A DNA stretch of 64,000 nucleotides from Longimicrobiales bacterium (GCA_965219445.1 CBDCNQ010000005.1:992001-1056000), one strand, 5' to 3'; counted from the stretch's first letter, positions 40,251 to 43,501 are shown. Notes: a model not told the origin generated them from the letters alone. Numbers and translations are program-made.

Positions 40251-41601
40251 AACGCGACGGCTGTGAACGTCTTCCGGACTGCGATGCGGACCCTGCGAGC
40301 GCACCCCTCCCCACCCTGAGTCGTCGACCGGGCAATCCAAACCATGCGGACGCCGACGGTCAAAAAATGAGCCGACGGCGCGTGGGGAAGGTGCGTCTTG
40401 ACCGCCAGCCCCATAGAAGGGTGTGTAAAAAGAGAGGCGACGTACCTTTGCGCTGAGATGTAAACCAGCGAGCCCGGGTGAGCGCCCGGGGAAAGGGACG
40501 TCGCCTCATGAGAGAAGATATCGCGGGACCCCGGGGTGCGTCCAGCAGGCCGATATGGGAGACGCTCGAGGGGATGGTTAGGGAGAAGGCGCAGGAGTTC
40601 ATCCAACAGATCATGGAGGAGGAAGTCACGGAGTTGTTAGCAACTGTGTGCGAACTCAAGCTCTGAAGCGTGGGTGGGGTCCCAGGATACGCCGTCTCGA
40701 ACCATAGCGTTGGCGATCACAAGCAACTTACGCATGCAGGCGGTGAGGGCGACTTTCGGAGGCTTGCCACGTTCTGTGAGCCGCTGGTAGAAGACGCGGA
40801 TCGCGGGATTACGCTGACTAGCGGTCAGGGCCGCCATGTACAACGCCACGCGTACGGAACGACGGCCTCCCCAGACCATTCGCTTACCTCTCAACGTACC
40901 CGAGTCCCGGTTCAGAGGGGCGACGCCGGCAAGCGCAGCGATCTGTTGCCGGGTTCAGCTGCCCGAGCTCGGGGAGCTCTCCGATCAGCGTGCGTGAGAC
41001 GACCGGACCGATCCCCGGTACACTCCGCAGCAGATCCTCCTTCGCGCGCCACACCGGGCTCGCCTTGATGCGACGCTCGAGTTCCGAGTCCACGGACTTC
41101 AGCTTGCGCTTGAGCCACTCGATGTGCTCGCCGATGTCCTTCGCCACCGTGGTGGACGCCATCTTCAGCCGGTTCTTCTCCGCGACCATCATCTCGAGCA
41201 GTTGACGACGACGGGCCAGAAGGGCCCGTTAACTGCTGGGTGTCCTCGTCCGGCAGCACCCGCACCTCTGGCCGCACCCGCTCGCCGAACAGCGCCAATA
41301 CCCTCGCGTCGATCCGGTCCGTCTTGGCGAGCTGGCCCGTTGCCCGTGCGAAGTCGCGCACCTGCCGCGGGTTCGCTACCACCACCGGGATCCCCGCTTC
41401 GGCGAGTGCCGCCGCCGCCGGCATCTCGTACCCGCCGGTCGCTTCCAGAACGACTAGCTCAACCGGACGCTCGCACAGCTGCTCAACAAGCACTTCGATC
41501 CCAGATTCGTCGTTCGAGACCGTCCACCCTTCGTCTTCTACCGCCACCTCGAGCTCCGCCTTTGAGACATCGATCCCTACGTACGCCTCGGCCTCAGACA
41601 T

Positions 41602-42937
41602 CGCTCTCTCCAGACTTGGGAGGATGATCGTGCATCGTCCTACCTTGCAGATCCGGGCTCCCTCGGCCCCAACAACTGTTCGGACTCATCACGATCTAGA
41701 AGGGACGGCGCCCACGCTAACAATCGGTCTCTAGTGCTGTGTAGCCAAAGTCTCTTTCGCTTTGCTGACCTTGGCGATGATGGATTGTGCAGAGGCGGTC
41801 CAGACAAAGGGTGTGGGGTTATCGTTTCTGCGATCGATGTAGTGGTTGATCGCCTCGATTAGTTGGTCCACGCTGGTGACGGCGAGGCGCTTGAGCTGAC
41901 GAGTCGTGAGTTCGCTGAAGAAGCGCTCGACGAGATTGAGCCAAGAGGATGAAGTGGGAATGAAGTGGAAGTGGACCCGAGGGTGTTTGTCGAGCCACGC
42001 CCTGACGGCCGGATGCTTGTGGGTGGCGTAGTTGTCGAGGATCACGTGGATGTCGAGTTCGGAAGCCACGCTGCGCTCGATCTTGCGGAGGAACCGCAGA
42101 AACTCCTGATGCCGGTGGCGCGGCAAGCACTCGTGGACGACCTCCCCGGTGGCTACGTCGAGGGCAGCAAAGAGTGTCGTCGTGCCGTGACGTTTGTAGT
42201 CATGGGTCATGGTTCCAGCGCGCCCCTTCTTGAGGGGAAGACCTGGCTGGGTGCGGTCGAGGGCTTGGATCTGGCTCTTCTCGTCGAAAGCGAAGACAAC
42301 GGCCCGCTCCGGGGGATCGACGTAGAGACCCACCACGTCGCGCAACTTTTCAACGAAGTGAGGATCAGTGGACAGCTTGAAGTACTCGATGCGGTGGGGC
42401 TGTAGTCCATGAGCCCGCCAGATCCGCGAGATGGTGGTCGGATGGACGCCCACTTCCTTGGCCATGAGACGGCAACTCCAGTGCGTGGCGTCTGCGTGCT
42501 TCTCCTCGAGGGTCTTGCGGACGATCTCCGCTTCGTCGTCCCGAGTGATCTTGCGGGGTCGACCCGAGCGTGGTCGGTCCTCGAGCAGCTCTTCAACGCC
42601 ACCTGCCTCGTACCGGTCGAGCCACTGCGTGACCGTCGGCCTCGATACGCCCACACCTCCCGGCAGATCGCCGACCACGACCGTCCCTCGGCAGAGCAGA
42701 GAACGATGTTGGCCCTTTCGACCACGCGTTGCGGTGTGGTCCGTTTGTTCACCAATCGCTCCAAGCGCCTGCGTTCTCCTCGGCGCAACCGAATCCTACG
42801 CACTGGAAGTCCCATGCGAGGAATCTACCGCATGTATCTATTAGGCATAAGATTTCTGCTACACTACACTAGGACCCTAGGCGGGACGGGCTACCGACCC
42901 TGTGTACCCAACGAAACTACCTATTCGTCGTCATACA
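41602..42937 (-). ncRNA. Bridge RNA in the IS110 left end, split by IS630 (parts 42873-42937 and 41602-41734)
   Basis: Guide segments TCCCGCC, TTGTTAG, ACAGTTG and TGCAAG match target and donor. Confidence 0.8.
41731..42872 (-). mobile_element. IS630-family element (one frameshift), CTAG at both ends
   Basis: [43 protein letters not shown]. Confidence 0.93.
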
Positions 42938-43501
42938 AGGGTGGGAGAAGTCAGAGGGCAGGAGTACGGTGGACTCGGCCGAGGGCTACCGCAACGGATA
43001 TGGCAAGCCGAGGCGGTTGGCGATGAGCTCGGGCACGATCACACTCCGACGCCCTCGGGTTCGGGGCGTCGAGGAGCGGTTCGAGAGTCGGGTGCTGCCG
43101 TTGTTCGCGAGGCGGACGAAGGAGCTGGGCGCTCTGCTTCCGGAGCTGTATCTGCACGGACTGGCGGAGGGAGACTTCGAGCTGGCGATGCGGGGACTGC
43201 TAGGCGAGGGGGCACCGCTGTCGAAGTCTTCGATTCAGCGGCTGCGGGCGGGATGGACGGCGGAGTTCGAGGAATGGAGCCAGCGTCGCCTGGAGGGCCG
43301 TGAGGTCGTCTACGTATGGGCGGACGGGATCTACGTGAAGGCAGGGTTGTCGATCCACCATTCTAGGCATTCCTCCCTCGCCGCCGAGGTCCACGTTGAA
43401 ACTCGGCGTGCCACCGTAGTGTCACGATGCCCAGGGCGGACAGAATAATGCTGTAGCGTTGCGGATCGACAACCCGTGTGTGCGACCGCATCGCCCCGGT
43501 C

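Follow-up and report, generated by a model that had tools for sequence, protein, structure and literature searches.

A bridge RNA element of the IS621 type from Longimicrobiales whose target guide is probably directed at the attC R'' box of integrons

The closest described relatives of the element reported here are the bridge recombinases IS621 and ISCro4 (IS622) (PMC11208160, PMC11208158, bioRxiv 2025.05.14.653916), and the mechanism of bridge recombination is itself already known. As far as the accessible parts of those reports describe them, both share with this element an RNA in the left end, a target loop followed by a donor loop, a CT core, a junction promoter (predicted here), a donor of the form ACAGT..-CT-TGTAT, a discontinuous right donor guide, handshake bases, and a recombinase with DEDD and serine residues. 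The differences lie in the target, REP for IS621 and ISCro4 but probably the R'' box of attC here; in the right target guide, which is naturally 7 bases long and dominant; in the left guide region, which is 2 bases shorter and informative at positions -1 to -4; and in the absence of a non-coding right end, the gene reaching the core and taking its stop codon from the target.

An attC site, as outlined in the accessible part of PMC3053210, is a palindrome of 57-141 bases between RYYYAAC and GTTRRRY with an extrahelical base. Targeting of attC has been described for IS1111 elements and for group IIC introns, both inserting in antisense (accessible parts of PMC11187229 and PMC3001079). In the case of the IS1111-attC group, which includes ISKpn4, ISPst6, ISPa21, and ISPa25 (Tetu and Holmes 2008, as cited in those papers), the likeness is that of an RNA-guided DEDD insertion sequence homing to attC. 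However, that group carries its non-coding region downstream and inserts in antisense, whereas the present element carries it upstream, inserts in sense at R'' by the evidence of CTAACAA-guide copies, and falls outside the group. The group IIC-attC introns likewise show RNA-directed homing to attC, but they are retroelements that enter the bottom strand, with an enzyme unrelated to the recombinase here (PMC3001079, in its accessible part). A further relative is ISEc21, which belongs to the IS110 family, carries its guide RNA upstream, and occurs within another insertion sequence, so that targeting of one IS by another is already known; ISEc21 hits codons around the catalytic aspartate of IS3-family transposases, whereas the IS256 site described below is unconserved and was hit once (PMC11187229, accessible part). 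Titles and the opening lines of abstracts contained no description of attC targeting by IS621-type elements, with subscription journals thinly covered; named elements of this kind may exist in ISfinder.

The window, meaning the whole 64,000-nucleotide stretch that was analysed, contains an IS110-family element on the minus strand between two CT cores, as the earlier note had claimed (Table 1). Three genomes are referred to throughout: the window's own genome (G000), a member of the same family but another genus (G014), and a relative with the same island (G007). G000 has a single copy of the element, and the transposase in the window matches PF01548 and PF02371 (Pfam) in pieces. G014 has 13 identical copies of 1157 bases, all free of IS630 and with the 320-aa gene open; the CT core is present at both ends in 12 of them, while the remaining copy has TT on the left. 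The window copy differs from these by 6 substitutions and 2 extra bases, each extra base being absent from 3 of 4 public sequencing runs (contigs), and it is dead. Its left non-coding end is split by an IS630, as had been noted from the sequence, and CTAG flanks both IS630 ends here and in all five G000 copies of that element. Removing the IS630 to rebuild the left end also proved correct, both from the 13/13 uninterrupted copies in G014 and from a joint 41730-42869 found in 2 of the 4 runs.

Table 1. Coordinates of the IS110 element, its predicted RNA features and its insertion site, counted from the first letter of the window
Feature	Position	Strand	Remark
IS110 element, IS621 type, split by IS630	40641..42937	-	1157 bases without cores when intact
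Left CT core	42938..42939	-	By comparison with intact copies
Right CT core	40639..40640	-	T begins stop codon TAA (40639-40637), the rest coming from target bases
IS110 recombinase gene	40637..41601	-	Intact, 320 aa; here 2 extra bases near 41225 and 40951
IS630 at CTAG, in hairpin between both target guides	41731..42872	-	5 copies in G000
Left end, 5' part: bridge RNA start and first half of target-binding loop	42873..42937	-	Intact copies, consensus fold
Left target guide TCCCGCCT	42879..42886	-	8 bases after conserved G (IS621: 10)
Right target guide TTGTTAG	41717..41723	-	7-base extended form, complement of CTAACAA
Target-loop handshake bases CG	41715..41716	-	Fit G and T at donor positions 7 and 6
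Left donor guide ACAGTTG and two core-pairing bases	41671..41679	-	
Right donor guide ATCTGCAAG	41644..41652	-	IS621: ATTTGCAAG
Donor-loop handshake bases GT	41642..41643	-	Fit target positions 7 and 6
Left donor ACAGTTG	40641..40647	-	Within last codons of recombinase gene
Predicted circle-junction promoter, -10 hexamer TATGAC	42930..42935	-	Predicted; mechanism from the accessible part of PMC11208160
Predicted circle-junction promoter, -35 hexamer TTGAGT	40654..40659	-	Predicted
IS256-family transposase, 5' piece, insertion host	40478..40638	+	
IS256-family transposase, 3' piece	42940..43346	+	Truncated at 43346
Left target flank TCCCACC	42940..42946	-	G007 (same insertion) and empty alleles: TCCCGGC
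Right target CTAACAA	40634..40640	-	7/7 match to right target guide; IS256 coding DNA, no attC

The intact G014 protein scores 233 bits against NCBIfam model NF033542, above its cut-off, and the only two solved structural relatives of the recombinase are IS621 and ISCro4 (PDB 8wt6 and 9t56, E ~1e-41). The DEDD and serine residues are present by motif (D11, E53, D95, D98, and S233), in agreement with the alignment to the structural relatives, and so are the wedge residues Y254, M255, and L258. Protein relatives are found mainly in Gemmatimonadota, the nearest in Longimicrobiales. Plasmids gave no close relative, the best being ~50-56% among the matches listed, and a pattern search widened to the order (3/301 genomes) gave no further insertion site.

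In intact copies the non-coding left end is 198 bases long and lies upstream of the gene. It contains, in order, the left target guide, a hairpin, the right target guide, the left donor guide, a second hairpin, and the right donor guide. This is the order found in IS621, and the guides stand as first read from the sequence. Two details of that reading have changed. The left target guide was thought to be one C short of its target; this bulged alignment has been dropped, and the guide, read in register, gives clear information only at -1 to -4. The right donor match, taken to be TGCAAG with one wobble, is indeed located there, but its form is corrected to the discontinuous AT-nn-GCAAG of IS621 (PMC11208158, in its accessible part), and the looped-out part varies in length between relatives. 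Together with its handshake bases, the right donor guide is one letter apart from the IS621 version, as given in the supplement to the IS621 work. The left donor guide tracks the donor variants ACAGTTG, ACAGGTG, ACAGCTG, ACGGTTG, ACCGTTG, and ACAACTG among relatives, an agreement that is partly by construction because the right end was located with the help of the guide. In 124 element-site pairs, the first handshake base of the donor loop is complementary to position 7 of the target 107 times and forms a wobble 14 times; the second base is weaker.

A consensus fold of 20 relatives has two stems with internal loops and compensatory changes in 15 of 32 pairs. Both target guides are unpaired in it, as the guides-in-loops arrangement requires, but the fold predicts that the left donor guide is paired over four bases with the right one, because the donor repeats TTG. 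Folded as a single sequence, the left end is no more stable than shuffles (z -0.08), and an Rfam search gave no match. The two hexamers noted earlier, TTGAGT and TATGAC, do stand 17 bases apart on the circle when counted from the sequence. Scanning an integrated copy for promoters gave no hit, which is what one would expect of a promoter that requires the circle; the joints of the four runs (contigs only) contain no circle junction. Read from the sequence, the gene on the circle would extend five codons beyond the core. The intact copies, the structural relatives, the covariation described next, and the consensus fold all agree with an IS621 bridge-RNA layout whose guides explain the insertion site, and we regard the element as almost certainly a bridge RNA system of the IS621 type, the RNA being predicted from its sequence.

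Covariation between guides and flanks was followed in 160 loci kept from 570 protein matches with 55-100% identity, a set that was chosen by likeness to one protein and whose members are mutually related; the guide alignment parsed 140 of these, leaving out 20. In 123 unique element-site pairs, the right guide fits its flank at a mean of 4.63 of the 5 non-core positions, against 2.77 for permuted pairs (maximum 3.02 in 2000 permutations). The same holds for 33 pairs with 18 unrelated guides, where the right guide matches 4.64 of 5 bases against 1.57. For the left guide, matches at -1 to -4 are 0.94, 0.87, 0.62, and 0.65 against 0.71, 0.47, 0.35, and 0.43, with little beyond -4. The natural sites of the window element follow ~C(C/G)(G/A)C-CT-RACRA, and U:G wobble covers nearly all departures on the right side. 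One G014 site (L036) fits better with a one-base shift of the left guide, and such slips may occur. At two sites the right match is perfect and the left match poor, and a 'half-match' explanation for them was considered and dropped; the report behind it (bioRxiv 2026.08.31.748434), in its accessible part, concerns donor-arm matches.

The sequence CTAACAA, spelled by the right guide, also occurs in integrons. Among 15 class 1 reference attC sites, the top strand has CTAACAA starting at its third base (the R'' box) in nine, and the bottom strand reads CTAACGC or CTAACGT in ten. Flanks were examined with a palindrome detector that scores the alignment of the two arms, with a pass at >=9; checked on 22 class 1 cassette ends, it recovers 16. 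Among elements with CTAAC guides it passed 31 of 81 unique right flanks, and among those with other guides 1 of 32; counted by 90% protein clusters, the figures are 22/39 and 1/19 (p 1.4e-4). Controls passed at 16/2430 for shuffles (0.7%), 9/1323 for G000 CTAAC sites, 0/64 for mirrored left flanks, and 8% for chimeric sequences. The other 50 CTAAC-guide flanks fail the detector, 11 of them resembling an attC arm and three lying within an attC. A rigid detector with fixed 5-base spacers, which passed 1 of 82 flanks, was rejected as too strict for these sites.

Two covariance models were also used. One, built from the 15 class 1 attC sites only, gave 32 hits in the 160 loci, of which at least 13 begin exactly 2 bases before the right core (four of these 13 with E above 0.05); the remaining hits are mostly additional attC sites within the flanks. 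For host sites this model is too narrow, detecting none in G000, one in G007, and two in G014. The other, a broader model trained in part on unoccupied attC sites from these loci and from G007, puts an attC directly at the right end of 3 of the 16 identical copies, of 6 of the 8 CTAACAA-guide relatives open to this test (one of the six cut by a contig end; two further relatives end too early), and of 28 of 59 other CTAAC-guide loci, against 0 of 34 loci with unrelated guides. The attC targets of relatives show the expected palindrome arms and extrahelical base. The attC type occupied in G014 is that of the array beside intI in G007, and attC sites adjoin TIGR02249 integrase genes in G000; G014 has an intI fragment only, and a piece of intI within the 1.5-kb flank was seen at one locus only. 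In both G000 (G000:C2:398571-399551) and G007 (G007:C7:278736-279788), intI and the attC array that lies downstream of it point the same way. At the window site itself, neither the detector nor the broader covariance model found an attC palindrome at or around 40640.

The guides also distinguish between the ends of the palindrome. All six palindrome hits of CTAACAA-guide elements are at R'', on the top strand and in the sense of the cassette, and elements with CTAACG-N guides are mostly at R' on the bottom strand, with 26 of 28 abutting hits of the broader model on the minus strand. At both end positions the AAC/GTT triplet is spared, the CT core being just outside it, and the hairpin is thereby left whole. 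A stop codon supplied by the target (TAA or TGA) occurs in 23 of 25 CTAACAA-guide loci, 15 of which are near-identical copies. The tree of relatives was built quickly and leaves many forks open; it does not fix the order in which retargeting took place. Other positions were noted among relatives. Three elements with CTAACGC guides (L143, L172, and L179) are inserted in the variable loop of an attC, and two ~62% relatives with a CTAACGT guide (L014, G007:C7:1317528-1321293, and L204:836-3740) are at the R' end. The targets CTAAC-TRGWA-TTAGAC of L151 (2460-2480), L159, and L180 resemble the simple sites of integrases (attI), and in L151 the 3' end of intI is ~250 bases from this attI-like target. 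In L180 (620-760), the left end of the element reappears in its left flank as far as the left target guide, as if an insertion had occurred at its own guide.

The insertion host in the window is an IS256-family transposase gene, and the earlier claim that the empty site restores it stands, the reading frame being rejoined across the site. The empty target was given as TCCCACC, which is not what other copies carry: TCCCGGC is found in G007, in the nearest empty IS256 copies of G000, and in the empty form in 4/4 runs. The pre-insertion allele was most likely TCCCGGC-CT-AACAA, with the guide in register, and the ACC of the window flank would be either a later mutation or an assembly error. From this site the element had been described as programmed to hit another IS. 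Its guide would then be made for the IS256 transposase gene, much as that of ISEc21 is for IS3-family genes. Locally the fit is good: besides the 7/7 match of the right guide, the GGC allele gives four pairs and a wobble over the six nearest left bases, and IS256 copies make up three of the four free RCCTAACAA sites in G000, so that the guide does predict an IS256 hit within this genome. Yet the insertion is a single event, since the G007 copy belongs to the shared island and is no second insertion, and none of 137 empty sites of the element and its relatives matches the IS256 protein. The 13 copies in G014 have 13 different flanks; the IS256 pieces of that genome lack the site, so G014 is no test of a preference for IS256. 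In G000, CTAACAA occurs at only 3 of 26 empty IS256-family sites, at synonymous ELLGRE codons with no catalytic motif; the other 23 are without it, and the three matching copies remain free. No conserved motif of another IS was found to have been hit repeatedly by independent insertions. The IS256 reading is largely refuted, and we consider it very improbable.

It could be argued that the element has no dedicated target and follows a relaxed 9-base motif, the attC excess arising from an inherited guide and from survival in harmless sites. Such an account has room for the 11 of 13 G014 copies that lie outside attC, several of them in coding DNA, for the ~400 sites in G000 that fit the relaxed motif, and for the weak left-guide information beyond -4. 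It does not easily accommodate the exact CTAACAA guide kept in nine protein clusters with identity down to 64%, nor sister guides that fit the opposite end of attC in the opposite orientation. Occupancy in G014 points the same way, although two attC sites with CTAACAA are free there: two of at least six attC sites are occupied (150 of 4632 candidates scored), and by hand count CTAACAA is occupied at 2 of 4 attC sites, itself a lower bound on attC, against 2 of ~112 places elsewhere (p ~0.005). A motif without a dedicated target is rated unlikely, and the guide is probably adapted to the attC R'' box of integrons with leaky specificity, the IS256 insertion in the window being a side hit. The state of the attC sites in G000 also enters here. 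Six of its nine attC sites have an altered R'' with one upstream flank in common and genes of another IS110-family element adjoining, and CTAACAA is kept in one of the nine, with a poor left match.

With the guide tuned to R'', the life of the element would run as follows. By comparison with IS621, as far as its accessible reports go, and with the hexamers in place, the element would circularise and the junction would build a promoter driving the bridge RNA from the left end. The donor loop is predicted to read ACAGTTG-CT-TGTAT, and the target loop, judging by covariation and 17 natural sites, ~C(C/G)(G/A)C-CT-RACRA, with the 7-base right guide giving most of the specificity and U:G wobble tolerated. 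The DEDD/serine recombinase, whose residues are present, would exchange strands at CT. The preferred site, going by the sequence pattern, is RY-CT-AACAA at the 5' end of attC, entered in the sense of the cassette just outside the AAC triplet with the hairpin whole, and the recombinase gene terminates on the TAA of the R'' box. The element may then ride with the cassette when IntI moves it. In G000 the R'' boxes would mostly have been altered earlier by another IS110-family element, an IS256 allele being a best-matching free site, and the later insertion of IS630 would have split the target loop.

A wider picture can be put forward only tentatively, as a possibility rather than an expectation. 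An IS621-type clade may have been reprogrammed to several integron positions (R' in antisense, R'' in sense, the attC loop, and perhaps attI), with the branch of the window posing as a cassette tail that borrows the TAA of R'', leaves the attC working, and owes its movement to two enzymes, its own RNA-guided recombinase and the host integrase; recognition might then extend beyond sequence to the attC fold. The cassette mimicry may be under selection. Fitted to attC, the guides would give a natural target to a widespread IS621-type clade with members in Gemmatimonadota, Deferrimicrobiota, Actinomycetota, Pseudomonadota, and metagenomes. Two or three changes of guide bases would switch an element between ends and orientations of one palindrome, a case of natural reprogramming with readable outcomes, and bridge recombinases would be linked to integron evolution alongside IS1111 elements and group II introns. 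The 13 identical intact copies in G014 point to recent activity and to a system open to testing.

Several other elements occur in or beside these arrays. The altered R'' in G000 reads GAGTATC in six of nine attC sites (G000:C2:384107-393856, C2:287375, and C5:253825), and in the C2 array the altered attC sites adjoin genes of a 348-aa IS110-family protein. In G007, an integron array carries six copies of an unrelated 475-aa IS110-family element (L217 and L218, G007:C7:228240-260070), inserted in antisense at attC R''; its upstream non-coding region has a TTTGTTAGCA stretch matching the flank, and it is a second, convergent attC-targeting IS110 lineage. One attC with a CTAACGT-guide relative at R' bears this 475-aa element at its opposite end. 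In G014, the right flank of copy L038 (G014:C14, near 90600) reads CTAACAAG, followed by an apparent end and the gene of another IS, which we take to be IS1595-like; this may be an attC broken by that IS. Within the window, a second, unrelated IS110-family transposase of 373 aa (38910-40031, plus strand) adjoins the left end of the IS256 and is also present in the G007 island. On the other side, at 43502-46779, two copies of another IS630, one of them internally deleted, stand around one gene, presumably a polyphosphate kinase 2.
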